From assembly GCA_965230945.1 (NCBI GenBank), contig OZ246397.1, positions 539,925 to 603,924 of the forward strand: a stretch of DNA of 64,000 bases. The letters run 5' to 3'. The notes below the pieces were generated by a model. It had not been told where the DNA came from, ran no database searches, and was given only the letters and a program-made list of their open reading frames with translations. Numbering within the stretch: the first letter of the stretch is position 1; every line of letters begins with the position of its first letter. The stretch comes from an uncultured Gammaproteobacteria bacterium (lineage in GTDB: Bacteria; Patescibacteriota; Microgenomatia; PFEM01; JAPLYW01). Positions 6,855-49,390 of this stretch are shown here, piece by piece. The position numbers and the translations under genes were made by a program.

Positions 6855-7725
6855 AAAGAAATATTGGTTAGGTTTTAGTGCCTTTGCGGGTATTGGTCCT
6901 AAGAAGTTCTTTCTTCTTAGAGATTATTTTGGCTCTGCTAAAAAAGCTTGGCTGGCTTCTTCTTTTGAGTTATTAAAGGCTGGCTTAGGTCAAAATCTGC
7001 TGACGAGTTTTGTTGAATTTAGAAAAAAACTAGATTTAGATTCGTATTTTCTTCGTCTGCGTGAAAACGGGATAGAGTGCCAAACACTAGAAGATAAAAA
7101 TTATCCAGAAAACTTAAAAAATATTGATAATCCGCCCTTTCTGTTATTTGTGAAAGGAAATTTAAAGACCAATGATAAATGGGCGATAGCTGTTGTTGGC
7201 TCAAGAAGGATGTCTAATTATGGAGAGTTGGTTACTAAAAAATTAGTTAAGGATTTGGTCGGTTTTAATTTAACCATTGTTTCTGGTCTAGCGCGGGGTA
7301 TTGATACCATGGCTCATAAAACGGCTTTAAGATTTAAAGGAAGAACGATTGCCGTTTTGCCTTGTGGTTTAGATATGGTTTATCCGCCGGAAAACAAAAA
7401 CTTGGTTAAGCAAATTATTGATAAGGGAGGAGCCGTGGTTTCTGAATATCCACCTGGTTTTCGAGTTTCAAGAGGTAATTTCCCAGCCCGCAATCGCATT
7501 GTTTCCGGACTGTCTTTAGGGGCTTTAATTATTGAAGGAGCAGAAAGGTCAGGTTCTTTAATTACCGCTCGTTTGGCAGGTGAGCAAGGCAGGGAAGTTT
7601 TTGCCGTTCCCGGTCAAGTTACTTCCAAAAACTCCTTTACGCCTTCTTTGCTTATTAAGATGGGGGCTAAGTTGGTTTGGGATGTTAATGATATACTGGA
7701 AGAATTAAATCTTAAAAAAAGATAA
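6844..7725 (+). CDS. dprA: DNA processing protein DprA (Smf)
   Basis: Rossmann-like DprA core (VVGSRRMSNYG, SGLARGIDTMAH, LPCGLDMVYPPEN, GSLITAR). Confidence 0.85.
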   Translation: MKDEKKYWLGFSAFAGIGPKKFFLLRDYFGSAKKAWLASSFELLKAGLGQNLLTSFVEFRKKLDLDSYFLRLRENGIECQTLEDKNYPENLKNIDNPPFLLFVKGNLKTNDKWAIAVVGSRRMSNYGELVTKKLVKDLVGFNLTIVSGLARGIDTMAHKTALRFKGRTIAVLPCGLDMVYPPENKNLVKQIIDKGGAVVSEYPPGFRVSRGNFPARNRIVSGLSLGALIIEGAERSGSLITARLAGEQGREVFAVPGQVTSKNSFTPSLLIKMGAKLVWDVNDILEELNLKKR

Positions 7726-7751
7726 GAAATGTTTTATTATTTTTATTAAAG

Positions 7752-9740
7752 ATGAAAAGTTTAATAATAGTTGAGTCGCCTACTAAATCGAAAACCCTAT
7801 CTTCCTTTCTGGGAAAGGATTACAAAGTTATTTCGACCATGGGCCATATCAGGGATTTGCCAAAAGAGAAACTTGGAATAGAGATTGTTAAGAAAGATAA
7901 TAAAAGCTATGATTTCTTGCCCCAATATACTCTTTTAGATAAGAAAAAAGAGACGATTAAAAAATTAAAACAAGAAACAGGTAAGGCTAAAAAAGTCTTT
8001 TTGGCTAGTGATTCGGATCGTGAAGGAGAATCAATTGCTTATCATGTGGCCGCCATTTGTTCTAAGAAAAAGGAAAAAGATCCTAAGTTCCTAAGAATTA
8101 CCTTTCATGAGATCACTAAATCCGCTATTCAAAAAGCCTTAGCCAATCCGGGGAAAATTAATCTTCAGCTGGTTGATGCTCAACAGGCGAGAAGGCTCCT
8201 TGATAGGCTGGTCGGTTACAGACTTTCACCTCTTTTATGGCGCAAGATAAGAAGAGGTTTATCGGCCGGGAGGGTGCAGTCAGTGACCGTGCGTTTGATT
8301 GTTGAAAGAGAAAGGGAAAGAGAAAAGTTTATCCCAGAAGAGTATTGGGATATATTAGCTTATCTTCGTAAGCATATTGGTGGTCAAAAAGAAGGGGCAT
8401 CTACTTTTTACGCTAAGCTATTAAAAAAGAATAACAAGCCTTTTAAAGTTGAAAAAGAGGTACAGGCAGAAGAGGTTGTTAAGGACTTGCAAAAGGCTAA
8501 TTATGAGGTAGGCGATGTTGAAAGAAAAGAGGTTTTTCAAAATCCACCACCTCCTTTTACGACTTCTACCTTACAACAGATTGCCTCTCGTCGTTTAGCT
8601 TTTTCAGGGAAAAGAACGATGCGCGCCGCCCAATCGTTGTATGAAAAAGGTCTTATTACTTATCATCGAACCGATTCTTTTAGTCTTTCTTTACAGGCAG
8701 TAGGAGAGATAAGAAATTATATAGAAAAAGAAAAAGGGAAAAATTATCTTCCCGAAAAGCCAAGAATTTACAAGACAAAGTCTAAGGTCGCCCAAGAAGC
8801 TCATGAGGCCATCAGACAGACGAATGTTAATCGTCAAATTGAGGAAAAGAAAATAGGGAGAGATGAACAAAGGCTTTATAAATTAATTTGGCAGAGAACA
8901 GTCGCTTCGCAAATGAAATCAGCTATTTGGGATCAGGCAAAAATTAACATTCAGGCGATCAGTCAAAAAGATCTTTATGGTCTTTTAGTTGAAGGCAAGG
9001 TGATGAAATTTGATGGTTGGTTTTCTCTTTATGAATTCAAAGATAAGGAAGAAGAACTCCCTGATCTTAAAAAGGGTGATGATTTAGATTTAATTGAAAT
9101 TAAGAGCGAGCAGAAATTTACCCAGCCACCGGCAAGATATACAGAGGCAAGTTTAACTAAGGCCTTAGAGGAAAGGGGGATTGGCAGGCCTTCAACCTAT
9201 GTTCCCATTATTTCTACCATTCAAACAAGGCAGTATGTCGAGAAAGAAGAAGGTAAATTTAAACCAACACCATTGGGTGAAGTGGTTAATGACTTTCTAA
9301 TTGAATATTTCCCCCAAACCTTTGATTATCAATTTACGGCCAAAATGGAAGATGAACTTGATGATATTGCTAATGGTAAAAGAGAATGGATTTCGGTGAT
9401 GAATGATTTTTACAAACCTTTTGAAGAAAAACTGGAGGCTGTGACAGAGGTAGCTGAAAGAGTTCAAGTGCCTACAGAAGTAACAGGGGAAGATTGCCCT
9501 GAATGTAAAAAAGGCCAGTTGGTTATAAGAGTTGGTCGCTTTGGAAAGTTTATATCTTGTTCTAGGTTTCCTGATTGTAAATATACCGCTCCTTTTGTGC
9601 AAACAGTAGAAGGGATTAAATGCCCTAAGTGTGGTGGAGAAGTGGTTGTCAAGAAGACTAAAAAGGGTAAACAGTTTTACGGTTGTTCTAATTATCCAAA
9701 ATGTAATTGGGCTTCCTGGAAAAAACCAAAAACAGCTTGA
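7752..9740 (+). CDS. topA: DNA topoisomerase I with C-terminal zinc ribbons
   Basis: TOPRIM N-terminus (IIVESPTK), catalytic Tyr region (YHRTDS), three C4 Zn ribbons at the C-terminus; TGA stop. Confidence 0.9.
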   Translation: MKSLIIVESPTKSKTLSSFLGKDYKVISTMGHIRDLPKEKLGIEIVKKDNKSYDFLPQYTLLDKKKETIKKLKQETGKAKKVFLASDSDREGESIAYHVAAICSKKKEKDPKFLRITFHEITKSAIQKALANPGKINLQLVDAQQARRLLDRLVGYRLSPLLWRKIRRGLSAGRVQSVTVRLIVEREREREKFIPEEYWDILAYLRKHIGGQKEGASTFYAKLLKKNNKPFKVEKEVQAEEVVKDLQKANYEVGDVERKEVFQNPPPPFTTSTLQQIASRRLAFSGKRTMRAAQSLYEKGLITYHRTDSFSLSLQAVGEIRNYIEKEKGKNYLPEKPRIYKTKSKVAQEAHEAIRQTNVNRQIEEKKIGRDEQRLYKLIWQRTVASQMKSAIWDQAKINIQAISQKDLYGLLVEGKVMKFDGWFSLYEFKDKEEELPDLKKGDDLDLIEIKSEQKFTQPPARYTEASLTKALEERGIGRPSTYVPIISTIQTRQYVEKEEGKFKPTPLGEVVNDFLIEYFPQTFDYQFTAKMEDELDDIANGKREWISVMNDFYKPFEEKLEAVTEVAERVQVPTEVTGEDCPECKKGQLVIRVGRFGKFISCSRFPDCKYTAPFVQTVEGIKCPKCGGEVVVKKTKKGKQFYGCSNYPKCNWASWKKPKTA

Positions 9741-9747
9741 TACCTTT

Positions 9748-10437
9748 ATGGCTCAAAGAATAGAAAAAGGATCTTTTGCCCCTGAATTTAAAACTAATCC
9801 TTATCCTGGTCTTTTTGTTGATATCGAAGGCTTGGATGGTTGTGGTCAATCAACGCAGATCCAATTGTTAAATAAACAATTACTTAAAAATGGGATTCAT
9901 CCAGTTCTCACAAAAGAGCCAGTTGAGGACTGCGCTTTAGGTAAAGAAATCCGTCAGATTTTAAAAAAAGAAAAACAAGCAGAAGCTCCTTTAAAACTTC
10001 AAGAAATGTTTGTTGTTAATCGCAAAGATCACCTTGAAAAGATAGTTGCTCCTTCTTTAAAAAGTGGGGGGATGGTGATAACTGACCGTTATTTTTGGTC
10101 AACCATCGCTTTTGGCTCTTTAGACATTAGCTCAATGGATCTTTTGAAAATGAATCAAAATTTTATTATTCCCGATATCACTATTTTTCTTGATGTTCAT
10201 CCGCAGGAGTCTTTGCGGAGGATAATTACCTCTCGGCCTTTGACTGAGTTTTTTGAAAGACAGGAAAAATTGGAGAAAGTTTATCAGACCTACCATTGGT
10301 TGGCGGATAAATTTAAGGAAAAGATTATTGTTATTCCTGGAGAAAGAAAAAAGGAGGAGATTGCCTCAGAAATCTTCAGCCTTATCGGTAATCACCCAAA
10401 ATTTTCTAATTGTATAAATAAAAAGATTTGTTTTTGA
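9748..10437 (+). CDS. tmk: Thymidylate kinase
   Basis: P-loop DIEGLDGCGQSTQ and the DRY motif (ITDRYFWS). The first ATG after the topA stop is used; the track ORF 9631.. overlaps topA. Confidence 0.85.
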   Translation: MAQRIEKGSFAPEFKTNPYPGLFVDIEGLDGCGQSTQIQLLNKQLLKNGIHPVLTKEPVEDCALGKEIRQILKKEKQAEAPLKLQEMFVVNRKDHLEKIVAPSLKSGGMVITDRYFWSTIAFGSLDISSMDLLKMNQNFIIPDITIFLDVHPQESLRRIITSRPLTEFFERQEKLEKVYQTYHWLADKFKEKIIVIPGERKKEEIASEIFSLIGNHPKFSNCINKKICF

Positions 10438-10617: not shown

Positions 10618-11664
10618 ATGTTAAATAGACTTCATGATATTGACTCGGCAAAATACTTAAAATATTCTTTATTTCTTAGTCAAGTGGAAAAGGATCTCGT
10701 AGAAGAATTTTTAGAGTGGCTTCCGGATGAAATTGTTGACTGTCATACACACTGTGGTCTTTCAGAGCACGTAAAAGAGATTGATAATGAAATATATCAT
10801 CAAATGATAAGTACATTTCAAGGATTTAGTTTTGAGAATTCACACAGGGTTGAAAAGATTTTTTTTCGAAATAAAAATCTCAGATGTTTGAGATTTCCCT
10901 TCCCTTTTAGGGGAATAGATATAAAAGCGGCAAATGATTATCTGTTAAATAAGGTGAAAAGCCCTGACAAAGTGGCACTTTGCGGAATTCCCGAAGATAT
11001 AGAATATACAAATTCAATATTGAGAACAGGCAAATTTAGTGCTCTTAAAATGTATCATCAGCAGTTTAACTCACCCTCGAAACATATTTACGAATATTTC
11101 CCTCCAAAAATTCTGGAAGCTGCTGAAAAAGAAGGAGTTCCCATAATTCTGCATCTGCCAAGAATGATTACGCTGTGCAAAGACGAACTTTTTGATCTGA
11201 TCTATGATTTTCCCGGCTTAAAAATTTCTTTGGCCCATTTGGGACTACCACACCTAGTTGTACCTACTTTAGAGGAAACTTATAGAGAAGTTGCACAGTA
11301 TTCTAATATTAATATGGATACAGCTATGATTCCGTCAAAAGACGTTCTAACGATGGCATTAAGGGCTTTTGGTCCAAGAAGAATAATGTTCGGATCAGAT
11401 GAACCAATAAATCTTATAAGAGCTGTTGTTTACCAAAATCCAATATTGGGTCAAAGGTTGATTACTGAGTATAATTATCATTGGGTAAACAAAGAGGAGC
11501 ATGAGACATATAAACACCTTGCTAAAGGAGCTACCCACATGCATTGGTCTGCAGTTCAGGCAATAAAAGACGCGATAGAAAATCTATATCCCATAAAACA
11601 ACAATCTGAAGTAAAAAATGATATTTTTAACAATAATGCGGTTAAATTTTTTAATTTTGACTAG
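10618..11664 (+). CDS. Amidohydrolase-2 family (TIM-barrel metal-dependent hydrolase), function unknown
   Basis: N-terminal DCHTHCG metal-binding HxH and a later HLPRM...SLAHLG His; AT-rich; convergent with the aspS operon. Confidence 0.5.
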   Translation: MLNRLHDIDSAKYLKYSLFLSQVEKDLVEEFLEWLPDEIVDCHTHCGLSEHVKEIDNEIYHQMISTFQGFSFENSHRVEKIFFRNKNLRCLRFPFPFRGIDIKAANDYLLNKVKSPDKVALCGIPEDIEYTNSILRTGKFSALKMYHQQFNSPSKHIYEYFPPKILEAAEKEGVPIILHLPRMITLCKDELFDLIYDFPGLKISLAHLGLPHLVVPTLEETYREVAQYSNINMDTAMIPSKDVLTMALRAFGPRRIMFGSDEPINLIRAVVYQNPILGQRLITEYNYHWVNKEEHETYKHLAKGATHMHWSAVQAIKDAIENLYPIKQQSEVKNDIFNNNAVKFFNFD

Positions 11665-22718: not shown

Positions 22719-23894
22719 ATGTGGTTAACCTTAATCACTTTTTTAATCGTTTTTTCCGTTATTATCTTAGTCCATGAGCTAGGTCATTTTTGGATAGCCA
22801 GAAAAGCCGGTATTAAGGTAGAGGAGTTTGGTTTTGGTTTTCCCCCTCGGCTTACGGGAAAAAAGATTGGTAAAACCTTTTTTTCCTTAAACTGGTTGCC
22901 TTTTGGAGGTTTTGTCAGGCTTTTTGGTGAGGAACTAGTCAAGGATTACAAAAAGAAAGGTAAGGATTACAAAGAGGCTTTTTGGTATAAATCCAAGCGG
23001 GCGAGAATAGCCGTTTTAGTGGCCGGTGTTTTAGCTAATTTTCTTTTGGCTATTGTTTGTTTTTCTATAGTTTATTCTATTTCCGGTATTCCCACTCAAA
23101 CTGATAGGGTAAATATAGTGGCTGTTTTACCTGATTCCCCAGCTGCAGAACTGGATTTAAAGGAAAATGATATTGTTTTGAGTGTTGATGAAGTGAAAGT
23201 TAATGACTTAAATCACTTTGTTGATTTAATTGATCAAAGAAAAGGTAAAGAAGTTAAGCTTTTGCTGGAAAGAAAAAAGGACAACCCTTGTTTAGAAGGA
23301 ATTTTAGATGATGAACAGAAATTTAGTTGTCAAGATAGCAACTTGCTTTTAGGAATAGAACCTCGAGAAAATCCGCCTGAGGGAGAGGGCTCTTTAGGGG
23401 TTCTTGTTTCTAATGTTGAAGTTAAAAAATATCCTCTGTGGCAGATGCCTTTTAGGGGAACAGTTGAAGGTTTTAAGGTAGCCTTTGCTTTGGTGGGCTT
23501 AATTGTTTCTGGTTTAGGCAAGATGTTGCTTAATTTAGTTGCCCACGGTCAGGTGCCTACAGAAGTGGCTGGACCAGTAGGCATTATGCAAATGACTGGC
23601 ATGGTAGCCAAGTCGGGGATAATAGCTGTCTTACAATTTACAGGTTTGATTTCTGTTAACTTGGCTATTATAAATGTCTTGCCTTTCCCGGCTTTAGATG
23701 GGGGAAGATTGGTTTTTATTCTTTATGAAGCGGTGACTAAAAAAAGACCTAAACCTTCTTTTGAATCATGGACTAATGCCCTTGGTATGGCCTTTTTAAT
23801 AGCCCTTTTGGTTTTGGTAACCATCAACGATATAAAAAGACTAATGGTGACCACTAATATTCTACAAAAGATAAGGGCGATTTTGCCGTTTTAG
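22719..23894 (+). CDS. rseP: Site-2 protease RseP (M50 family) with a PDZ domain
   Basis: HELGHF zinc motif in TM1, PDZ in the middle, LDGG near the C-terminus. Confidence 0.8.
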   Translation: MWLTLITFLIVFSVIILVHELGHFWIARKAGIKVEEFGFGFPPRLTGKKIGKTFFSLNWLPFGGFVRLFGEELVKDYKKKGKDYKEAFWYKSKRARIAVLVAGVLANFLLAIVCFSIVYSISGIPTQTDRVNIVAVLPDSPAAELDLKENDIVLSVDEVKVNDLNHFVDLIDQRKGKEVKLLLERKKDNPCLEGILDDEQKFSCQDSNLLLGIEPRENPPEGEGSLGVLVSNVEVKKYPLWQMPFRGTVEGFKVAFALVGLIVSGLGKMLLNLVAHGQVPTEVAGPVGIMQMTGMVAKSGIIAVLQFTGLISVNLAIINVLPFPALDGGRLVFILYEAVTKKRPKPSFESWTNALGMAFLIALLVLVTINDIKRLMVTTNILQKIRAILPF

Positions 23895-24025
23895 ATTTTC
23901 TGCTATACTGAATTAGTCTATGCTTTATTCAAAACTTTTTGGAAAAACAATAAAGGCAGCTCCTAAAAAAGCAGAAGCTATTTCCCATCAGTATCTTGTT
24001 AAAGCTGATTTTATAATTAATTTAC

Positions 24026-24883
24026 TTGAAGTTTAAATTTTTTATGAAAAGAATTGTTATTCATATTAATCCAGATTTGGATGCTGTTGCTTCAGTTTGG
24101 CTTATCAAAAGATTTTTGCCTCGTTGGGAAAAAGCAGAAATAGGTTTCTGTCAGGCAGAAACAACTTTTGATGGGAAGCCAGTAGATAGTGATCCTGATA
24201 TTTTACATCTTGATGTTGGTTTAGGTAAACTTGATCATCATCAAACTGATTGTTTTACTTCGGCAGTTAAACTCACTTTAGATTTCATCTTAGAAAAAAG
24301 AAAAGGACAAGAGTTGAGCCCTTTAGATTTAGAGGCTTTAGAGCTCATGGTAGAAACGATTAATGAAATTGATAATGCGCGAGATTTGAATTGGCCGGAA
24401 GTTAAAAAAGAGCGTTATGATTTTTATCTCCATTCTATTTTAAGTGGTTTAAGAAGAATGGGGAAAACTGATATTGAACTAGTTGAATACGGTTTTTTAG
24501 GGCTAAATGCTGTTTTTAAGAATCTTAAAGCAGGGATAAAAGCCAAAGAAGAAATAAAAAAGGGGATTGAATTTCAGACTCCTTGGGGAAAGGCAATTGC
24601 CTTGGAGACCGGTAATGAATTATTTTTATGGGAAAGTGAAAAAGCTGGTTATTATTTAGTGGTTAAAAAGGATCCTGACGATGGTGATGTTAGAATTTAT
24701 GCTCGTTATGATAGTGATGTTGATTTGAAAAATGTTTATCAAAAATTTAAAGAGATGGATAAAGAATCTGATTGGTTTTTACACGCTTCCGGTAAGTTGT
24801 TATTAAATGGATCTCGGGTTAAAAAGATGAAACCAACAAAGTTAAGTTTAGAGCAAGTAATTGGGGTGTTGAAAAATGGTTGA
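24026..24883 (+). CDS. DHH-family phosphoesterase (NrnA-like nanoRNase/pAp phosphatase)
   Basis: IHINPDLDAVAS (motif I) and GKLDHHQTD (DHH motif). The likely ATG is at 24044; the track start at 24026 is a TTG. Confidence 0.6.
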   Translation: MKFKFFMKRIVIHINPDLDAVASVWLIKRFLPRWEKAEIGFCQAETTFDGKPVDSDPDILHLDVGLGKLDHHQTDCFTSAVKLTLDFILEKRKGQELSPLDLEALELMVETINEIDNARDLNWPEVKKERYDFYLHSILSGLRRMGKTDIELVEYGFLGLNAVFKNLKAGIKAKEEIKKGIEFQTPWGKAIALETGNELFLWESEKAGYYLVVKKDPDDGDVRIYARYDSDVDLKNVYQKFKEMDKESDWFLHASGKLLLNGSRVKKMKPTKLSLEQVIGVLKNG

Positions 24884-25199
24884 TTGTATTTTTTGTCAAA
24901 TTGCTCAAAAAAAGATACCAGCAGAGATTGTTTATGAAGATAAAAAGATCATTGCTTTTAATGATGTTAACCCTAAAGCACCTGTCCATATCTTAATTAT
25001 TCCTAAGAAACATATTAAAGATTTTATTAGTTCTGGAAAATTCTTTCCTAAGATTTTAAAAGTTGCTAAAGACTTAATTAAAAAGTATAATTTAGATAGG
25101 AATGGTTATAGATTAGTAGTCAATGGCAGGAGTGCAGCGCTTGTCGATCATTTACATTTACATCTTTTAGGAAAAATAACTGTTGATAGGAATGTTTAG
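24876..25199 (+). CDS. HIT-family (histidine triad) nucleotide hydrolase
   Basis: 107 aa; CIFCQI N-terminus; HLHLHLLG histidine triad at the C-terminus. Confidence 0.8.
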   Translation: MVDCIFCQIAQKKIPAEIVYEDKKIIAFNDVNPKAPVHILIIPKKHIKDFISSGKFFPKILKVAKDLIKKYNLDRNGYRLVVNGRSAALVDHLHLHLLGKITVDRNV

Positions 25200-25236
25200 G
25201 GGAAGTTATTCTAATAGGGTAAATTATTTTTAAGTA

Positions 25237-25307
25237 CGGGGCGTAGCTCAAAATAGAGCAGCGTACTTGGTGTACGATGTATAGTGGTTTAAATCCATTC
25301 GCCCCGA
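25237..25307 (+). tRNA. tRNA-Pro(UGG)-like element with atypical D- and T-loops, 36 nt upstream of the proS start; either a divergent tRNA or a tRNA-mimic operator
   Basis: Hand-folded cloverleaf. Acceptor CGGGGCG/CGCCCCG is 7/7 Watson-Crick. U8 A9. D-stem GCTC/GAGC with a 6-nt D-loop AAAATA (no G18G19). Anticodon stem GCGTA/TACGA. Loop CUUGGUG (U33, anticodon UGG, U at position 37). T-stem AGTGG/CCATT with loop TTTAAAT (no C56). Discriminator A; no encoded CCA. Confidence 0.45.
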
Positions 25308-25343
25308 CAAATTTAAAGAGATTAAGAAATAATATGATTTTCT

Positions 25344-26792
25344 ATGAATGAAAAAGAGAAGGTTAATTTTTCTTCTAAAGAATTAGGAGTTAAGGTGGAA
25401 TCAGATAAAATTTCTGAGTGGTATAATAAAATAATTAAAGAGGCTGATTTGATTGATCAAGGCCCAGCTAAAGGGACGATGGTTTTTCGTCCTTATGGTT
25501 ATGCTCTTTGGAAAGGAGTTCAAAAGAGTCTTGGGTTTAAAATAGAAAAGAATGGGGTTGAAGATGCTTATTTTCCTGCTATAATTCCAGAAAAACTTCT
25601 AGTTAAAGAAAAAGATCATATTGAAGGTTTTTCTCCGGAATTTTTACGTGTTCGAGGTAGAAGTGGAGAAATTGGAGTATTGAGGCCAACTTCCGAAGCT
25701 GTAATGTATCCATTATTTAAGAAGTGGATTCAATCTTACAGAGATTTACCCCTTAAAGTAAACCAGTGGTGTAATGTTTTTAGAGATGAGTTAAGAACGT
25801 ATGCTTTAATACGCACTTCTGAATTTCTTTGGCAGGAGGGTCATTGCGTGTATGCTTCAGCAAAGGAAAACGAAGAAGCAGTGATGGATTTTTTAAATAT
25901 GTATAAGAATTTTTTTCGTAATACTCTTGCTGTATCTCCTATTTTTGGGAAAAAAAGCGAAAAGGAAAAATTTGCAGGAGCTTTATATACTACAACTGGC
26001 GAAGCAGTTTTACCAGGAGGGAAAGCTCTTCAAGTTTGTACTTCTCATAATTTAGGGACAAATTTTGCAGAAGCCTTTGATATACAATTTTTAGGTAAAG
26101 ATGGCAAACAACATCACCCATATCAGACAAGTTGGGGTTTAAGCTGGCGGGTTATTGCCGCGATGATTATGAGTCACGGTGATAAAAAAGGGCTTATTTT
26201 TCCACCAGAAATGGCCCCTACGCAAGTAATAATTATACCTATTAAAGGTTCATCTGATGAAGTAGTTATGGAAGCAGCAAAATCTATAAAAGAAAGATTG
26301 TCTGATTTGAGAGTTGATATAGATAAGTCAGATGCAAGGCCAGGAGCTCGTTATAATTATTATGAACTTAGAGGAGTACCTTTAAGGATTGAAATTGGCG
26401 CCCGTGATATTCATAATAATCAGATAATAGTTGCAAATCGATTAACTGGTGATAAAAAAGCTCTGCCTTTAGGTGGTCAGCTTAGAAAAGGCATACAGTT
26501 GTCATTAACATCAATACAAGAGTCTTTATTAAAGAAATCTGAAAGTTTAGTTAAAGAAAGTACCAAAGATGTAAAGACATGGGAAGAATTTAAAGAGATT
26601 CTTAATAAAAATGGAGGTTTTCTGAGAACTTATCACTGTGGAAATAGAGATTGTGAACAACAAATTCAGGATGAAACAAAAGCAACATTAAGATGTATCC
26701 CTTTCGGTTATGAAAAATCAGAGGGAAAATGTGTTAGATGCGGAAAACCATCTAATTATGGTCAAAAAGTACTTTTTGCTAAGGCCTATTAG
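25344..26792 (+). CDS. proS: Prolyl-tRNA synthetase, archaeal/eukaryal-type (class IIa) with a C-terminal zinc-binding domain
   Basis: Motif 1 region FRPYGYALW, motif 2 FRDELRTYALIRTSEF, motif 3 GLSWRVIAAMIMSHGDKKG, anticodon-binding domain, C-terminal CGNRDC...CVRCGK. Confidence 0.85.
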   Translation: MNEKEKVNFSSKELGVKVESDKISEWYNKIIKEADLIDQGPAKGTMVFRPYGYALWKGVQKSLGFKIEKNGVEDAYFPAIIPEKLLVKEKDHIEGFSPEFLRVRGRSGEIGVLRPTSEAVMYPLFKKWIQSYRDLPLKVNQWCNVFRDELRTYALIRTSEFLWQEGHCVYASAKENEEAVMDFLNMYKNFFRNTLAVSPIFGKKSEKEKFAGALYTTTGEAVLPGGKALQVCTSHNLGTNFAEAFDIQFLGKDGKQHHPYQTSWGLSWRVIAAMIMSHGDKKGLIFPPEMAPTQVIIIPIKGSSDEVVMEAAKSIKERLSDLRVDIDKSDARPGARYNYYELRGVPLRIEIGARDIHNNQIIVANRLTGDKKALPLGGQLRKGIQLSLTSIQESLLKKSESLVKESTKDVKTWEEFKEILNKNGGFLRTYHCGNRDCEQQIQDETKATLRCIPFGYEKSEGKCVRCGKPSNYGQKVLFAKAY

Positions 26793-26800
26793 TATTTTCT

Positions 26801-27571
26801 ATGTTTATGGAATGTAGTAGTAAATTAACATTGTCAAATATTCCTTCCGATTATCCACTTCCTAACCTTTATTATTTCTCTTCCAAATTTTTAACAGAAA
26901 TTCGTAAACAGGTGACAGGTGCTGTTTCAATTTTAAATCAAAATGGTTTTGAAGAATGTCATTTCCCTTTTTTAGTTCCGAGAAGCCTTTTATTGTATTA
27001 TAAGAACTTAATATCTTTGGAAGATTTTATAAAAGTATATTCAGGGAAAGATAAGCGATCATATGCTTATTTGAGACCAGATGGTGTGTTTAGTCAAGGG
27101 ATCACTTTAGCAAAAGAAATGATTAAGAGTTATCGTAATTTACCCTTGAAATTATTCGAAGTATCCCCAAGCTATAAAAGATTAAAGAACAAAACCAAAG
27201 GGAATGTCTTTACTTCTCCAGAAGAGTCTTTTTCTATACAAGGTGGAGTATTTATTGAGGATAAAGACGAAAATGAATTTCTTCAGACGATTATTTCTAG
27301 AATTCTAAATAACTTCTCAATACCGTATATAGCCAAAAATAATAAATTATGTAAATATGGGGGAATAAATTATAGCACTCTTTTTAGTGACAATGAGATA
27401 AATCTCGCTAAAATTTGTGTTTTTGATCAAGAAGTTACTCGGGAAGCAAACATTTATTTTTTTAATAAAGAGGGAAGGAGATCTTTTCCATACATGTATA
27501 GCTTTAGCTTATCTCAAAACATTTTTTTAATTAGTCTTTTAAAAAATGAAAGAATAGGATTAGAAAAGTGA
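26801..27571 (+). CDS. ProRS-like paralog truncated to the N-terminal catalytic region (256 aa); no anticodon-binding or Zn domain
   Basis: YAYLRPDGVFSQGITLAKEMIKSYRNLPLKLFEVSPSYK parallels the proS segment [37 protein letters not shown]; very AT-rich. Confidence 0.55.
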   Translation: MFMECSSKLTLSNIPSDYPLPNLYYFSSKFLTEIRKQVTGAVSILNQNGFEECHFPFLVPRSLLLYYKNLISLEDFIKVYSGKDKRSYAYLRPDGVFSQGITLAKEMIKSYRNLPLKLFEVSPSYKRLKNKTKGNVFTSPEESFSIQGGVFIEDKDENEFLQTIISRILNNFSIPYIAKNNKLCKYGGINYSTLFSDNEINLAKICVFDQEVTREANIYFFNKEGRRSFPYMYSFSLSQNIFLISLLKNERIGLEK

Positions 27572-28995
27572 ATAACATATCAGAAGAGAAATTGATAGAT
27601 TGGCTGAAGTTTTATGTTAACTTTGGTGATATAGTAAATGATGATTTTCCTACTAAAGGAGCTTGTTCTTGGTACCCTTATGGATATTCTTTAATGAAGA
27701 ATATCCTTCATTTAGCATCAAATATTTTAATTAAGAAAGCTAAGTTTAAAGAGATTGTTTTACCATCTTTTGTTCATGGTGAAGATTTCATGAAAGAATG
27801 CAAAAATATAAAAGATTTTAGTGAACGTGTATATTGGTCGCCATTATATAGAAAAGACGATCTACATGTAGTAACTCCTACAATTGAAGCACAGTTAGGT
27901 GCTCTTTATAATAAATGGCTACAAGCAAATAAAAAACTTCCGTTTAAGTATTTTACGATAAGGGGAGTAGGTCGTTATGAAACTGGAAGGACAATTCCTT
28001 TATGGAAGGAACGTAACGTTTGGCCTTTTTTTGAAGGGTTAACGGTTCATAGTTCTTCATCTGATTTTTTAGCTACCATAAAACAACAAATAAATTTTAT
28101 GGAAGTTTTTTTTGAAGAACTTGGAATTCCTGTTTTAATCCTTGAAAGACCTAAGATTAATTCTCGTTTGTGTGAATATTCTGAGCGAAGAATAGAAGCT
28201 GTTACGATAACTAAAGATAAGAGGGTTGTAATACTAGCAAATATATATGATTTAGGAGAAATATTTAGTAGAGTATACGATATCTTTTATATCGTTAAGA
28301 ATACTAAATATTATGCCTTAACTTCTGCGATAGGTTTATCTGGTAGGGTGTTGGCTACCTTGTTGACTATAAATGGCGATAAAGATGGTTTTATTCTTTC
28401 TCCAATGATTGCTCCAATTAAGTTAGCGATATTACCAATTTATAATAAACCAGCTTTTACTAAGCTAGCAAAAAAGATAGAAGTTTATTTAAGTAAAAAA
28501 GGTATAGTTTCAAAGAATTTTCCGGCTGTGTCTTCGTTGGGAGAGAGGAGAAGAAAAGTAACAGCAATGGGGATACCTTTTTTAATAGAGATTGGATCAA
28601 ATGAAATAAAAAGCTCGTCAGTATTAATAAAAGAACGTGTTCTTACTCATAATTCTACAGAATGTGAAATAAAAGAAATACCTTATATTATTAAGAAACG
28701 AGGCAAAATAATGAATAAGTTTATTAAGCAGAAAGCATTTAAAGAATTCAATTTACTTACTAAGTCTGTTAAGTTAAAGAAAAATTTTCTTTATTGCCTT
28801 AAAGATGAGATTTTAACAGAATCATTTTTTTGTAATAATCCAAATTGTTATAATAAAATGGCAGAATTGTCAAATAGAGAAATAATTGGTCGTAATTATA
28901 AAGCTAAAATAAATAAAAAATCTAAATGTATAGTTTGTGGAAAAACAGCATCTCAAGGTATTTATTTTGGTATTAAATGGAAGGGAGAAAAGTGA
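27568..28995 (+). CDS. Full-length divergent ProRS-family paralog (475 aa: catalytic, anticodon-binding and Zn-ribbon domains)
   Basis: PTKGACSWYPYGYSLMK, VTPTIEAQLGALYNKWLQANKKLPFKYFTIRGVGRYETGR (motif 2 altered), GLSGRVLATLLTINGDKDG (motif 3), SPMIAPIKLAILPI, C-terminal CNNPNC...CIVCGK. Confidence 0.6.
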   Translation: MNNISEEKLIDWLKFYVNFGDIVNDDFPTKGACSWYPYGYSLMKNILHLASNILIKKAKFKEIVLPSFVHGEDFMKECKNIKDFSERVYWSPLYRKDDLHVVTPTIEAQLGALYNKWLQANKKLPFKYFTIRGVGRYETGRTIPLWKERNVWPFFEGLTVHSSSSDFLATIKQQINFMEVFFEELGIPVLILERPKINSRLCEYSERRIEAVTITKDKRVVILANIYDLGEIFSRVYDIFYIVKNTKYYALTSAIGLSGRVLATLLTINGDKDGFILSPMIAPIKLAILPIYNKPAFTKLAKKIEVYLSKKGIVSKNFPAVSSLGERRRKVTAMGIPFLIEIGSNEIKSSSVLIKERVLTHNSTECEIKEIPYIIKKRGKIMNKFIKQKAFKEFNLLTKSVKLKKNFLYCLKDEILTESFFCNNPNCYNKMAELSNREIIGRNYKAKINKKSKCIVCGKTASQGIYFGIKWKGEK

Positions 28996-28997
28996 TT

Positions 28998-29912
28998 ATG
29001 GATTTTTTAAAAAAGGGAGACACTATTGGGGTGGTTGCTCCTGGCTCGCCAGTGCCTAAAAAAAATATAAAAAAGGGAGTTAATGTTCTTAGTAATATGG
29101 GCTTTAATGTAAAATTAGGTAAGCATATTTTTAGTATTACTGGCTATACGGCAGGAATTGCAAAAGATCGTGCTAATGATATTAATAGGTTTTTTTCTGA
29201 TTCTCAGATTAAAGCGATAATTGCTGCTCGTGGTGGTTATAATTGCAATCAGATCTTACCATTTTTAGATTATGGACTTATTAAAAAAAACCCAAAGATT
29301 TTCTTAGGTCTTAGTGATGTAACTGCAGTGTTAAATGCTATTGTTTTGAAATCGAATGTTATAACATTTCATGGCCCAGTTCTTTTAATGATAGGGGGTG
29401 GAAGAGATGGTAAAGTATTCTCTAAGTATTCCAAAGAAAATTTTGAAAAAATACTTATGAATGAAAAGAAAAGGTTTATTAATGTAGTTAATGCCTTTGA
29501 TAATTGGATTGTTTTAAATAAAGGAAAAGCTGTAGGCAAACTTTTTGGCGGGAACCTCTCTTCTTTAATAAGTATTATTGGTACATCATATGAACCAAAT
29601 TGGAAAAATGCGATTCTAATGTGGGAAACGCTGGAAGAAAAATTAGAAATGATAGATCAGATGTTAACACATCTGAGATTAGCTGGAATTTTTGATAAAA
29701 TTAATGGTATGATGGTAGGTAAGTTTGTTGATACTAAACAGGGAAGAGATACAGAGATTATTAAAATGATTTTAGAACAATGCAGGGGATATGATTTTCC
29801 GATAATTTATGGGGTTGATTTTGGCCATACTAACGAAAATTTAATATTACCTATAGGTGGGGAAATTAGTTTTAATACAGAAGAAGAATTTCTTAAGATT
29901 ATTAAATATTAA
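28998..29912 (+). CDS. Peptidase S66 family (LD-carboxypeptidase LdcA / microcin-C immunity MccF-like serine hydrolase)
   Basis: IGVVAPGSPV, nucleophile motif LGLSDVTAV, C-terminal GVDFGHT...PIGGE His motif. An alternative ATG at 28977 overlaps the upstream stop. Confidence 0.7.
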   Translation: MDFLKKGDTIGVVAPGSPVPKKNIKKGVNVLSNMGFNVKLGKHIFSITGYTAGIAKDRANDINRFFSDSQIKAIIAARGGYNCNQILPFLDYGLIKKNPKIFLGLSDVTAVLNAIVLKSNVITFHGPVLLMIGGGRDGKVFSKYSKENFEKILMNEKKRFINVVNAFDNWIVLNKGKAVGKLFGGNLSSLISIIGTSYEPNWKNAILMWETLEEKLEMIDQMLTHLRLAGIFDKINGMMVGKFVDTKQGRDTEIIKMILEQCRGYDFPIIYGVDFGHTNENLILPIGGEISFNTEEEFLKIIKY

Positions 29913-29923
29913 ATTAGAAATTT

Positions 29924-31057
29924 ATGGGGCCTTATCAGGCGAAGCCAGGCGGTGTTATTTCTTATTTAGGCAATAAGATTTATCCTCCAGTTGAGGATGT
30001 ATTAGCTGTTTCTTGGCCACCAAAAGATTTAGTAGACAGAGTTGGATCTATTTATCGAGATAAGAAGTGGTACCACCTGCATAAAATTGATGCCTCAATT
30101 TTTACTGCTACGACACAATTCTTCCAAAGTATAAATGCTGATTGGGTTAATCTACCTCTTACCACTATGATGATTTCTTCTCCTGGTGAAGTTTATGCTG
30201 GACAAAGACTAAATTACACAACAGATACTTTACCTATGGAAATTCCTAATTGGTTTCATACTGGTAATAGAGTGTTTCTTTCAGAATCTTCACAGTTTTA
30301 TCTAGAATTAAGATTAATAATTGATAAGCTGGATAAAGTTTTTTCGATTTATAATTCTTTTAGGAAGGAAAAAGCTGATGCTACTCATTTATCAGAATTC
30401 CAACATGTTGAGTTTGAAGGACATGTTAATTTCAAAAATAACATAAATACTTTTATCAATTTGATTAATTATATTTTAAATTTTCTTTTACAAAATAACG
30501 AAGATAATTTATCTTTTTTTCTTGAAGATCAAGATATAAATGAATTATCTCGAAGCATGAAAAAGATTTTTAAGGTTCCGTTTGTCGAAATTTTAAAAGT
30601 TCTTTTTAAGGAAACTGGAAATAATAAATATAAAGAATTTTCAATGAAGAATTTTGGGTCGTGGGAAGAAATTTTTATTACTCAGATTTACGGCGGTAAT
30701 GTGTTAGCTCTTAATTTCCCTATGTTGCAGATCCCTTTTTATCATGAAATAAGTAAGAAAAAAGTTGGGGGTGTTCCTGTAGCTGAAAATGCAGATTTAA
30801 TACTTCAAGGATATAGAGAAACTGTTGGGAGTGGATTAAGAATTACAGATCCAAAGGCTTTGGCAGAAAAAGCAAAAATTTTTAATCTACCTATAGATGA
30901 CTATAAACCTTACCTTGAGACACGTAAGATGAAGAAATATAAAACATCGGCTGGTTTCGGTTTAGGTTGGCAAAGATTTACGCAATGGATTTTAAAATTA
31001 CCATATATTTGGGAAACAACCCCAACTCCTCGTGGACACACAAAACCAAGGCTTTAA
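29924..31057 (+). CDS. Standalone class IIb aaRS catalytic core (AsnA / AsnRS-AspRS-like); no anticodon-binding domain
   Basis: Motif 2 FSIYNSFRKEKADATHLSEFQHVEFE, motif 3 SAGFGLGWQRF, C-terminal IWETTPTPR (compare AsnRS IRDVIPFPR). Confidence 0.6.
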   Translation: MGPYQAKPGGVISYLGNKIYPPVEDVLAVSWPPKDLVDRVGSIYRDKKWYHLHKIDASIFTATTQFFQSINADWVNLPLTTMMISSPGEVYAGQRLNYTTDTLPMEIPNWFHTGNRVFLSESSQFYLELRLIIDKLDKVFSIYNSFRKEKADATHLSEFQHVEFEGHVNFKNNINTFINLINYILNFLLQNNEDNLSFFLEDQDINELSRSMKKIFKVPFVEILKVLFKETGNNKYKEFSMKNFGSWEEIFITQIYGGNVLALNFPMLQIPFYHEISKKKVGGVPVAENADLILQGYRETVGSGLRITDPKALAEKAKIFNLPIDDYKPYLETRKMKKYKTSAGFGLGWQRFTQWILKLPYIWETTPTPRGHTKPRL

Positions 31058-31107
31058 TTAAAAACAACATTTTTTATTACTTGATAATTTACAGAATATA
31101 ATCGATA

Positions 31108-31263
31108 ATAAAAAAAGAGCTTTTAGGGAAAATAGTTTTAAAAATTAAAGAAATTGCTAAAGAGAAAAAAATAGATAAAGGCTACAAGGTGCAAATTAAC
31201 TGCGGAAGAAAGGCGGGTCAAATAGTACCTCATTTGCATTTTCATTTGCTCGCTGGTTTTTAA
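31108..31263 (+). pseudogene. 3' fragment of a second HIT-family gene (about 51 codons, no start codon)
   Basis: In-frame translation IKKELLGKIVLKIKEIAKEKKIDKGYKVQINCGRKAGQIVPHLHFHLLAGF followed by a stop. The HIT C-terminal block and histidine triad are present, the N-terminal nucleotide-binding half is absent, and a stop lies immediately upstream at 31105-31107. Confidence 0.55.
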
Positions 31264-31320
31264 AGCTCCTAAAAGAAATCTTTAGTATTTGCCATAAAGA
31301 AAGGAAGGTGATATGAGAAA

Positions 31321-31509
31321 ATGGCGACTGTTGTCAAAAAGTCTCCGGGAGAGACTGAAGATAGGCTGATTGCTAAGTTTAGAAGGAAAATTATTTCTGA
31401 ACAGCTTCTAGATGAAATTAGAGAAAGAAAATTTTACAAACCGCCATCAGTTAAAAAGAAAGAACGTTTGGCGGCTTTAAGACGGGGGAGGGGAAGGAAA
31501 AGGAGATAA
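31321..31509 (+). CDS. rpsU: 30S ribosomal protein S21
   Basis: 62 aa; LIAKFRRK...FYKPPSVKKKERLAA, basic tail. Confidence 0.8.
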   Translation: MATVVKKSPGETEDRLIAKFRRKIISEQLLDEIRERKFYKPPSVKKKERLAALRRGRGRKRR

Positions 31510-49226: not shown

Positions 49227-49303
49227 TTTTTTTCTTGGTGTGGAAATTTAAAGCCAAAGTAGTTCGAACTTCGTCCACGAGGGGGAGGAGTGAGTTGTTT
49301 TAG

Positions 49304-49390
49304 TGCCGTGGGTCGGAGTCGAACCGACACGAGCTTTAAAGGCTCACAGGTTTTTGAGACCTGCGCGTCTACCAGTTCCGCCACCACGGC
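49304..49390 (-). tRNA. tRNA-Leu (anticodon CAA), class II with a long variable arm
   Basis: RC gives GCCGTGG-TG-GCGG-AACTGGTAGA-CGC-G-CAGGT-CTCAAAA-ACCTG-TGAGCCTTTAAAGCTCG-TGTCGG-TTCGACT-CCGAC-CCACGGC-A; canonical GG in the D-loop and TTCGA in the T-loop; no encoded CCA. Confidence 0.8.

Follow-up and report, generated by a model that had tools for sequence, protein, structure and literature searches.

An S66 hydrolase and an anticodon-less AsnRS-like core form a conserved gene pair with microcin-C-type partners in Patescibacteria and archaea

The 64-kb window analysed here (the whole 64,000-nucleotide stretch taken from contig OZ246397.1) carries, on the same strand, a gene for an S66 family serine hydrolase followed by one for a class IIb aminoacyl-tRNA synthetase (aaRS)-like catalytic core that resembles asparaginyl-tRNA synthetase (AsnRS). 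Both open reading frames (ORFs) sit exactly where a sequence-only reading of this DNA had placed them. They form the end of a tight block of five plus-strand genes, in the order prolyl-tRNA synthetase (ProRS), 256-aa degenerate class II core, 475-aa ProRS paralog, S66 and AsnRS-like core, with successive gaps of 8, −4, −19 and 11 nt, so that S66 begins 19 nt before the end of the ProRS paralog and is followed after 11 nt by the core (Table 1). The window is AT-rich (30–39% G+C), and its core protein matches proteins from assemblies of Patescibacteria, the candidate phyla radiation (CPR). The S66/core module probably has its role in the production or handling of an amino-acid–nucleotide toxin, and not in cell-wall recycling or the supply of asparagine; we put at roughly 0.5 the probability that it both makes and self-detoxifies a microcin-C-type aminoacyl-nucleotide without a ribosomal precursor peptide.

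The core contains the motifs SESSQFYLE (30281–30307), FRKE (motif 2, 30359–30370), GYRETVGSGLR (30809–30841) and GFGLGWQR (motif 3, 30953–30976). It aligns with the catalytic part of the AsnRS model alone (positions 124–446 of 451), and the approximately 45 residues that precede the catalytic domain are too few for an OB-fold anticodon-binding domain; a Pfam search of the core found no match to PF01336. An AlphaFold2 model built from 60 homologues (pLDDT 90.7, pTM 0.91) places only two short hairpins and helices ahead of the class IIb core, and this predicted structure confirms the bare class IIb domain that the sequence-only reading had proposed. The asnS equivalog models (TIGR00457 and NF003037) give 125 and 132 bits against cut-offs of 343 and 414, the best of the archaeal asparagine synthetase (AS-A) models NF005052–NF005055 gives 108 bits against 389, and the genX (EpmA) model 20 bits against 287; since every score falls below its cut-off, the core lies outside the curated AsnRS, AS-A and EpmA families. 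The best Foldseek matches of the model are the AsnRS–adenylate complexes 9sh8 (Thermus thermophilus) and 1x54 (Pyrococcus horikoshii), with TM scores of 0.77–0.78; for 1x54 the TM score is 0.78 and the root-mean-square deviation 2.2 Å. The nearest fold is thus that of AsnRS with Asn-adenylate bound. Aspartyl-tRNA synthetase (AspRS) ranks below AsnRS, the archaeal asparagine synthetase AS-AR is absent from the 50 best fold matches, and the asparagine synthetase 3p8t matches at E 2e-9 over 98 residues only.

Alignment to the E. coli and archaeal AsnRS, AspRS and lysyl-tRNA synthetase (LysRS) sequences shows that motif 2 Arg147 and Glu149, motif 3 Arg351 and the metal ligands Asp291 and Glu299 are invariant across the core family. 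The side-chain pocket is of the AsnRS type: Leu127 occupies the position of an AspRS Lys (which we take to be Lys198, the aspartate-binding residue of the E. coli enzyme), Glu163 replaces the Asp of AspRS, and Arg306 is kept. The sequence-only reading had called the protein an Asp/Asn-adenylate-forming core; the asparagine half of that assignment is upheld, and Leu127 and Glu163 speak against the aspartate half. Two further invariant residues are peculiar to the family, Arg298 and Glu121, the latter standing where archaeal AsnRS and both AspRS references have Gln, and an invariant 'flipping-loop' segment (residues 83–111) is about 20 residues longer than in archaeal AsnRS. The motif-2 loop, which in class IIb enzymes contacts the acceptor end of the tRNA, is shortened by one residue, and its basic residues are gone (KADAT as opposed to KSRTSR). 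Judged by these residues, the core looks like an active asparagine-type adenylate-forming enzyme that is no longer built for tRNA. It shares with AS-AR/AsnA a class IIb core lacking the anticodon domain and, presumably, tRNA-free adenylate formation, but differs in being about 80 residues longer than AS-AR (294 aa), in the invariant residues and extended loop just described, in scoring far below the family cut-offs, and in having genomic partners unrelated to asparagine supply. EpmA/GenX is likewise a class IIb core minus its anticodon domain with dedicated partner enzymes, and passes the activated amino acid to a non-tRNA acceptor, elongation factor P; the core is set apart from it by the low model score and by a pocket of the AsnRS rather than the LysRS type.

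The S66 protein matches both Pfam domains of its family (PF02016 and PF17676, 129 and 115 bits against cut-offs of 25 and 23.7; E 1e-37 and 5e-33). The G-L-S-D nucleophile and distal His named by the sequence-only reading are both present (G-L-S-D at residues 111–114, with Ser113; His284 in FGHT) and are completed by Glu217 in LMWE, and these three residues align with Ser118, Glu243 and His311 of the microcin C (McC) immunity peptidase MccF. The equivalog model for the LD-carboxypeptidase LdcA (NF008424) gives 138 bits, below its cut-off of 378. In the PDB, Lmo1638, BA_5613 and MccF score 137–147 bits and LdcA structures 75–100 bits, while E. coli LdcA itself (110 bits, 28% identity) also falls below the MccF-like proteins. 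The S66 proteins of other modules are clearer still, with median scores of 165 bits to E. coli MccF, 187 bits to AgnC5 of the agrocin 84 cluster and 76 bits to E. coli LdcA; a neighbour-joining tree places them with MccF and AgnC5, and 52 of 55 keep the inter-domain loop of MccF together with its Trp186. This Trp reportedly stacks on adenine, and Asn220 and Lys247 are said to bind the acidic side chain; the residue identities at these positions were confirmed on the E. coli MccF sequence. The window protein falls, by alignment and tree, in a separate clade of short S66 proteins with members from Streptomyces and Legionella plasmids, in which the Trp186 loop is likewise deleted. Its orthologues at 50–69% identity are found on contigs whose lengths equal those of the contigs with the close core orthologues, and adjacency to the core was read directly in two of their loci (L091 and L092).

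The core family (377–385 aa) shows 50–81% identity among Patescibacteria, and a pattern-based scan of one genome per species found the core at 40–57% identity in 80 loci (185,579 species, 87 confirmed matches; the use of two exact peptide patterns limits its sensitivity). Besides many CPR lineages, the hosts include Woese-, Nano-, Pace-, Micr- and Aenigmarchaeota and the haloarchaea Natrinema gari, N. altunense and Haloarcula regularis. A tblastn search with the window S66 as query detected a homologue no more than 5 kb from the core in 66 of the 85 loci fetched, mostly downstream and on the same strand, and most of the misses are contig ends. All flanking ORFs were clustered, and the counts that follow refer to 47 independent loci extending at least 5 kb downstream, 29 of them archaeal (DPANN and haloarchaea) and 18 bacterial (mostly CPR); four genetic-code-25 loci (L005, L020, L030 and L046) were excluded from the ORF statistics because translation table 11 breaks their genes. 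A gene for an S-adenosylmethionine (SAM) enzyme is found near the core in 45/47 loci, S66 in 41/47 and both together in 41/47, and 38 of the loci with both also carry at least one further aaRS-like gene. In archaea (DPANN and Natrinema) S66 is retained next to the core in 26 of 29 loci. The S66 gene and the core are a real, co-inherited pair, not chance neighbours, and the module they belong to is conserved across CPR, DPANN and haloarchaea and, we propose, horizontally mobile.

The SAM enzyme, about 277 aa in length and encoded just downstream of the core, points to microcin C. With its profile, MccD (5fcd) comes first among the PDB matches (E 4.6e-34) and is aligned from end to end (profile positions 8–266 of 279, MccD residues 5–266 of 267), whereas the methyltransferases ranked just below match mainly over the Rossmann core. 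Individual proteins reach 33% identity to E. coli MccD (E 9e-30), the reference genes being those of the authentic E. coli cluster of plasmid MccC7-H22. Pyridoxal phosphate (PLP)-dependent decarboxylases in four loci match the N-terminal domain of MccE (E 4e-11, Pfam Orn_Arg_deC_N), small GNATs in two loci match its C-terminal immunity domain (E 1e-18), and 8 of 76 loci have a HIT hydrolase gene in the vicinity of the core. HIT hydrolases are reported to confer resistance to processed microcin C (PMC7157772). In Natrinema, genes for a DrrA-type ABC ATPase and an ABC-2 permease are placed between the core and S66. These partners, together with the MccF-clade S66, bear out across CPR, DPANN and haloarchaea the functional pairing and microcin C link that the sequence-only reading had suggested from the window alone.

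Another identity was considered for the SAM enzyme. Group II MmtN methionine S-methyltransferases are reported next to a 'putative MetRS' in Woesearchaeota and other CPR/DPANN genomes (PMC9135737), and those neighbourhoods may overlap the ones described here. This assignment was provisionally rejected, since in the comparison of the profile with PDB entries MccD is the first match and the 60 best matches include no entry for MmtN. Full-text literature searches returned no paper that links McC-type genes with CPR/DPANN or with an AsnRS-like core, and a PADLOC search with the core, S66, the ProRS paralogs and representatives of the neighbours gave no defence-system match other than a generic methyltransferase.

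The modules lack the customary opening of the microcin C pathway. The sequence-only reading saw neither a precursor peptide nor an MccB-like adenylyltransferase near the window pair, and the same is true of the modules at large: no MccB-type ThiF/E1 homologue was found in them, the one weak ThiF match lying about 7 kb from the core in L053, and Asn-ending small intergenic ORFs (22/410 across all modules) show neither enrichment nor a conserved position, with a Shine-Dalgarno-like motif upstream of 2 of the 22. The module thus differs from the mcc cluster in having an AsnRS-core paralog instead of a ThiF/E1-type MccB and an Asn-ending precursor peptide, in including divergent aaRS paralogs, and in its CPR, DPANN and haloarchaeal hosts. 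It shares with that cluster MccD along the entire length, MccF by clade and Trp loop and, in some loci, homologues of both MccE domains; by analogy, the HIT hydrolases would correspond to MccH/HinT and the chemistry would likewise start from asparagine. The agrocin 84 cluster of pAgK84 offers a second parallel, as it concerns a nucleotide-type aaRS inhibitor and encodes both an MccF-like S66 (AgnC5, the reference nearest to the module S66 proteins) and an extra aaRS (AgnB2, a second LeuRS); it differs in that agrocin 84 targets leucyl-tRNA synthetase (LeuRS).

Two readings that need no toxin can be weighed on this evidence. In the first, the core is an AsnA/AS-AR asparagine synthetase and the S66 protein a murein LD-carboxypeptidase, with no function in common. 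Anticodon-less AsnRS/AspRS paralogs that make asparagine are indeed known (AS-A; PMC9437257). The core has its weak match to the archaeal AS-A model, the window S66 shares with E. coli LdcA the absence of the MccF-specific loop, and CPR bacteria are generally described as having murein. The sequence-only reading had named this same combination as the mundane alternative; in the event, neither protein groups with its proposed family. The core stays far short of the AS-A cut-off, has no AS-AR among its closest folds and carries Leu where aspartate-binding AspRS has Lys; the S66 protein misses the LdcA cut-off by a wide margin and is nearer to MccF-like structures than to any LdcA. Archaea have no murein, and because DPANN and haloarchaea retain the S66–core pair together with MccD-like genes, a role in murein recycling is unlikely. 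This argument applies to the module as a whole and not to the window's bacterium alone. We regard the pairing of two unconnected housekeeping enzymes as very unlikely.

In the second, the core is the organism's real, minimal AsnRS and its neighbours are unrelated. The family is highly conserved (at least 50% identity across CPR phyla), has intact catalytic motifs and an AsnRS-type pocket, is often located among translation genes and is labelled asparagine--tRNA ligase in some source annotations; moreover, a canonical AsnRS was not found in the 64-kb window. The distribution looks patchy, though, within the sensitivity of the pattern scan, and in L066 a genuine AsnRS (441 bits against a cut-off of 414) adjoins the core, which for that reason is not the housekeeping AsnRS of that organism. 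The shortened motif-2 loop devoid of basic residues fits poorly with charging of tRNA, and the near-constant MccD-like and S66 partners would be left unexplained. We give this reading hardly any weight.

The trio of core, SAM enzyme and S66 is nearly always accompanied by one, and often two tandem, divergent aaRS paralogs of several kinds: ProRS-like proteins of 376–484 aa, LysRS-like proteins (200–307 bits against cut-offs of about 428–468), one AspRS-like protein, an AlaRS-core-like protein (1riq, E 6e-7) and a class I LeuRS-like protein of 670 aa. A further neighbour cluster (c4) has weak similarity to HisRS (E 0.007 with Pfam, 0.14 with PDB) and was not assigned. The 475-aa ProRS paralog of the window belongs to a neighbour cluster (c3) present in 27 loci and has both the Arg/Glu of motif 2 and the Arg of motif 3 intact. 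Its upstream neighbour of 256 aa has lost the motif 3 Arg in the alignment and is probably a non-catalytic partner subunit. Tandem pairs are frequent among the ProRS-like paralogs; in the two that were aligned, from L026 (2415–4783) and L070 (2356–5051), motif 2 is intact in one copy and degenerate in the other, which suggests that such pairs, including the one at 26801–28995 of the window, may assemble into heterodimers with one active and one inactive subunit.

In two Natrinema loci (L074 and, at 6923–9769 on the minus strand, L072) a LeuRS of 948 aa adjoins the core, and this protein falls into one cluster with the 670-aa LeuRS-like paralogs from DPANN modules. Haloarchaea are reported to carry one active and one nearly inactive LeuRS (PMC4005665).

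The main rival to a toxin pathway is a resistance or decoy island in which S66, HIT and GNAT proteins detoxify foreign aminoacyl-nucleotide antibiotics while the core and the paralogs act as insensitive back-ups or adenylate-mimic decoys. It accounts well for the degenerate paralogs, as the eroded motifs of the 256-aa window protein and of the second copies of tandem pairs fit binding without catalysis. S66/MccF, HIT and MccE-C-type GNAT proteins are all known immunity enzymes; immunity to agrocin 84 is achieved through a second LeuRS, in a cluster that also encodes an MccF-like protein; and a Legionella plasmid island described below joins S66 with GNATs, an aminoglycoside phosphotransferase (APH), YbaK and AlaX. 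What it leaves unexplained is the MccD-type tailoring enzyme, which is almost universal and accompanies the core more constantly than any other partner (45/47), together with the MccE-N decarboxylase of some loci; both are biosynthetic in McC clusters. Every ATP- and metal-binding catalytic residue of the core is invariant, a core devoid of its anticodon domain cannot easily replace AsnRS, and the variety of paralog types (Pro, Lys, Ala, Leu, Asp) does not fit a single conserved warhead. On balance we consider a resistance island unlikely, though a more serious contender than the two preceding readings.

For the production of a microcin-C-type toxin, the known pathway offers a template. MccB adenylates the C-terminal Asn of its peptide, which passes through a succinimide and a second adenylation to a stable N-acyl phosphoramidate, a mimic of aspartyl-adenylate; the phosphate is aminopropylated by MccD and MccE; and the carboxamide bond is the one that MccF cuts (PMC4010828, PMC9239234). 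In the module, the AsnRS-like core sits where MccA and MccB would be and would replace both: because the catalytic domain of AsnRS carries out the first MccB step on the free amino acid, we propose free asparagine as the starting material from which the core builds the warhead. The core would first bind asparagine and ATP to give asparaginyl-adenylate, and the activated residue would then pass through a succinimide to a stable aspartamide-type N-acyl phosphoramidate adenylate, as MccB achieves on a C-terminal Asn. In most lineages the MccD-like SAM enzyme would decorate the phosphate, with the PLP decarboxylase maturing that group in a few. The aaRS paralogs (ProRS-like in the window) may add an amino acid to the free amine to give a Trojan-horse pro-form, or may have some other role in specificity. 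Finally, S66 would cleave the acyl–N bond and protect the producer, with HIT as an optional second hydrolase. The synthesis and controlled hydrolysis of an aspartyl-nucleotide envisaged by the sequence-only reading is likewise a proposal.

More tentatively, CPR, DPANN and a few haloarchaea may share a mobile toxin pathway that needs neither MccB nor a ribosomal peptide. The core would form the adenylate warhead out of free asparagine, and interchangeable aaRS paralogs (Pro-, Lys-, Ala-, Leu- or Asp-like) would attach a variable amino acid that sets the range of uptake or target; MccD- and MccE-like enzymes would decorate the phosphate, and S66 and HIT would confer self-immunity. The product might serve these episymbionts as a weapon or as an agent of host control; we hold this broader picture to be possible, at somewhat less than even odds.

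Several points weigh against the production of such a toxin. The second step is speculative, because to our knowledge no class II aaRS fold forms an N–P bond. Gene content, linkage, family assignments and intact catalytic residues are shown, and from them we infer the substrate, the formation of that bond by a class II fold, the product, the order of the steps and the biological role. The MccE-like genes are confined to a handful of loci and the exporter genes were seen in haloarchaeal loci alone. Housekeeping aaRS genes beside some modules (AspRS in L062, LysRS in L081) could reflect the ordinary clustering of translation genes. Within the S66 proteins, the positions of MccF Asn220 and Lys247 are not conserved in the module. 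The window itself departs from the common pattern, for no MccD homologue was found anywhere in its 64 kb and its S66 protein has the Trp186 loop deleted, so that a McC-type assignment of this protein is drawn from its context only. The placement with MccF and the substrate loop, which the sequence-only reading had named as tests of MccF against LdcA, accordingly hold for the module S66 proteins and not for the window copy, and the substrate of the short S66 type cannot be read from the MccF structure.

The window lineage is a derived, reduced variant of the module, without MccD, with a short S66 that has no Trp loop, and with ProRS paralogs upstream. Two relatives (L091 and L092, cores 71–75% identical) keep ProRS, mini core, ProRS-like gene, S66 (308 aa) and core in different flanks, with mini-core orthologues of 240–248 aa in the same position and no MccD-like gene with the block. 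The next relative (core 58% identical) has the standard order of core, MccD-like gene and S66 (346 aa).

Other short S66 proteins extend the picture. The closest plasmid relative of the window protein (37% identity; plasmid of Streptomyces sp. NBC_01456, L089 3465–9104) overlaps the start of a gene for a 334-aa 'amino acid--tRNA ligase-related protein', and the pair is flanked by two radical SAM genes and by SDR, WYL and ABC genes in what looks like an uncharacterised natural-product cluster. The ligase-related protein is weakly similar to the window core (41 bits), and the pairing was rejected as orthologous on this score and is taken as analogous only. A metagenomic relative (45% identical, L097 5548–7924) overlaps a 486-aa class IIb gene, again with a radical SAM gene present, and two further relatives have unrelated neighbours; linkage of the short S66 type to class IIb adenylating enzymes thus recurs, but not in every relative. 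On a Legionella anisa plasmid (L090 1104–9674) a short S66 gene that matches many Legionella plasmids stands with genes for YbaK/EbsC, an AlaX-type editing protein, several GNATs, a SAM methyltransferase and an aminoglycoside-type kinase, an island that reads like resistance to aminoacyl-nucleotide or mischarging stress.

Table 1. Coordinates, strand and supporting matches of the gene block and other features of the 64-kb window.
Feature	Coordinates	Strand	Evidence
AsnRS-like class IIb catalytic core, 377 aa, without anticodon-binding domain	29924-31057	+	PF00152, 89 bits
S66 serine hydrolase, 311 aa, triad Ser113/Glu217/His284	28977-29912	+	Pfam S66 N- and C-domains
Divergent ProRS paralog, 475 aa; catalytic, HGTP anticodon and C-terminal Zn domains	27568-28995	+	proS_fam_I, 208 bits vs cut-off 437
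Degenerate class IIa core, 256 aa, without anticodon domain	26801-27571	+	tRNA-synt_2b, 21.7 bits, sub-threshold
Genuine archaeal-type ProRS, 482 aa, first of tight block	25344-26792	+	TIGR00408, 526 bits vs cut-off 437
HIT/HinT-type hydrolase, 107 aa	24876-25199	+	PF01230, 66.6 bits
285-aa protein	24026-24883	+	ChrB_C, sub-threshold
Reductase–core fusion, 663 aa	13103-15094	-	GlutR_N and NADPH-binding domain; AspRS-type class IIb core
Genuine bacterial-type AspRS, 459 aa	11718-13097	-	585 bits vs cut-off 443
Amidohydro_2 gene	10618-11664	+	PF04909
tRNA-Leu(CAA)	49303-49390		Rfam and tRNA scans

Around the pair, the 482-aa ProRS is the housekeeping enzyme and its membership of the module is uncertain. 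The HIT gene lies 144 nt upstream of ProRS and is not conserved in the closest relatives of the block; its product is a possible accessory aminoacyl-nucleotide hydrolase. The stop of the 285-aa gene overlaps the HIT start by 8 nt, and its product has no confident family, the sole match being the sub-threshold one to ChrB_C, and is seen solely in copies of the same genome (L001 and L002). Downstream of the core follow the ordinary housekeeping genes rpsU, yqeY, ybeY, dnaX, ybaB and recR. A promoter scan of 23800–31500 performed at chance level, a terminator scan of the same interval found no terminator-like site 3′ of the core on the operon strand, and Rfam and tRNA scans of the window returned nothing beyond the tRNA-Leu gene of Table 1.

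A second anticodon-less core lies elsewhere in the window, as the C-terminal part of the 663-aa fusion, and is of the AspRS type with an Asp-type pocket (QLYKQ). The N-terminal part resembles glutamyl-tRNA reductase, with a Cys in SKCNC that we take to be the catalytic Cys of the E. coli HemA STCNR motif. About 19 homologues (32–100% identity) share the architecture, one from a Patescibacteria assembly and the others from metagenomic contigs. Because CPR bacteria are not expected to make haem, the fusion may instead use aspartate, which it would both activate and reduce, or have Asp-tRNA as its substrate. Immediately downstream is the genuine AspRS, which has no E. coli insertion domain, and beside the two lies the Amidohydro_2 gene. 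Core-adjacent ORFs of three archaeal loci (L066 13449–14528, L071 11131–12159 and L082 12572–13129) form one cluster whose L071 representative is also Amidohydro_2. These genes, set side by side by family match alone, may connect the two anticodon-less cores in a further way.

If the production and self-detoxification of a microcin-C-type aminoacyl-nucleotide is the correct interpretation, the module would be the first McC-type pathway whose warhead comes from a tRNA-synthetase paralog and not from a ThiF-like enzyme with a ribosomal peptide as its substrate. It would likewise be without precedent in archaea and among the ultra-small symbionts of the CPR and DPANN groups, for which little is known of how hosts are controlled or killed. 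The highly conserved 'amino acid--tRNA ligase-related protein' and several orphan families of aaRS paralogs would gain a function, and a modular enzyme set for making aaRS inhibitors would become available.

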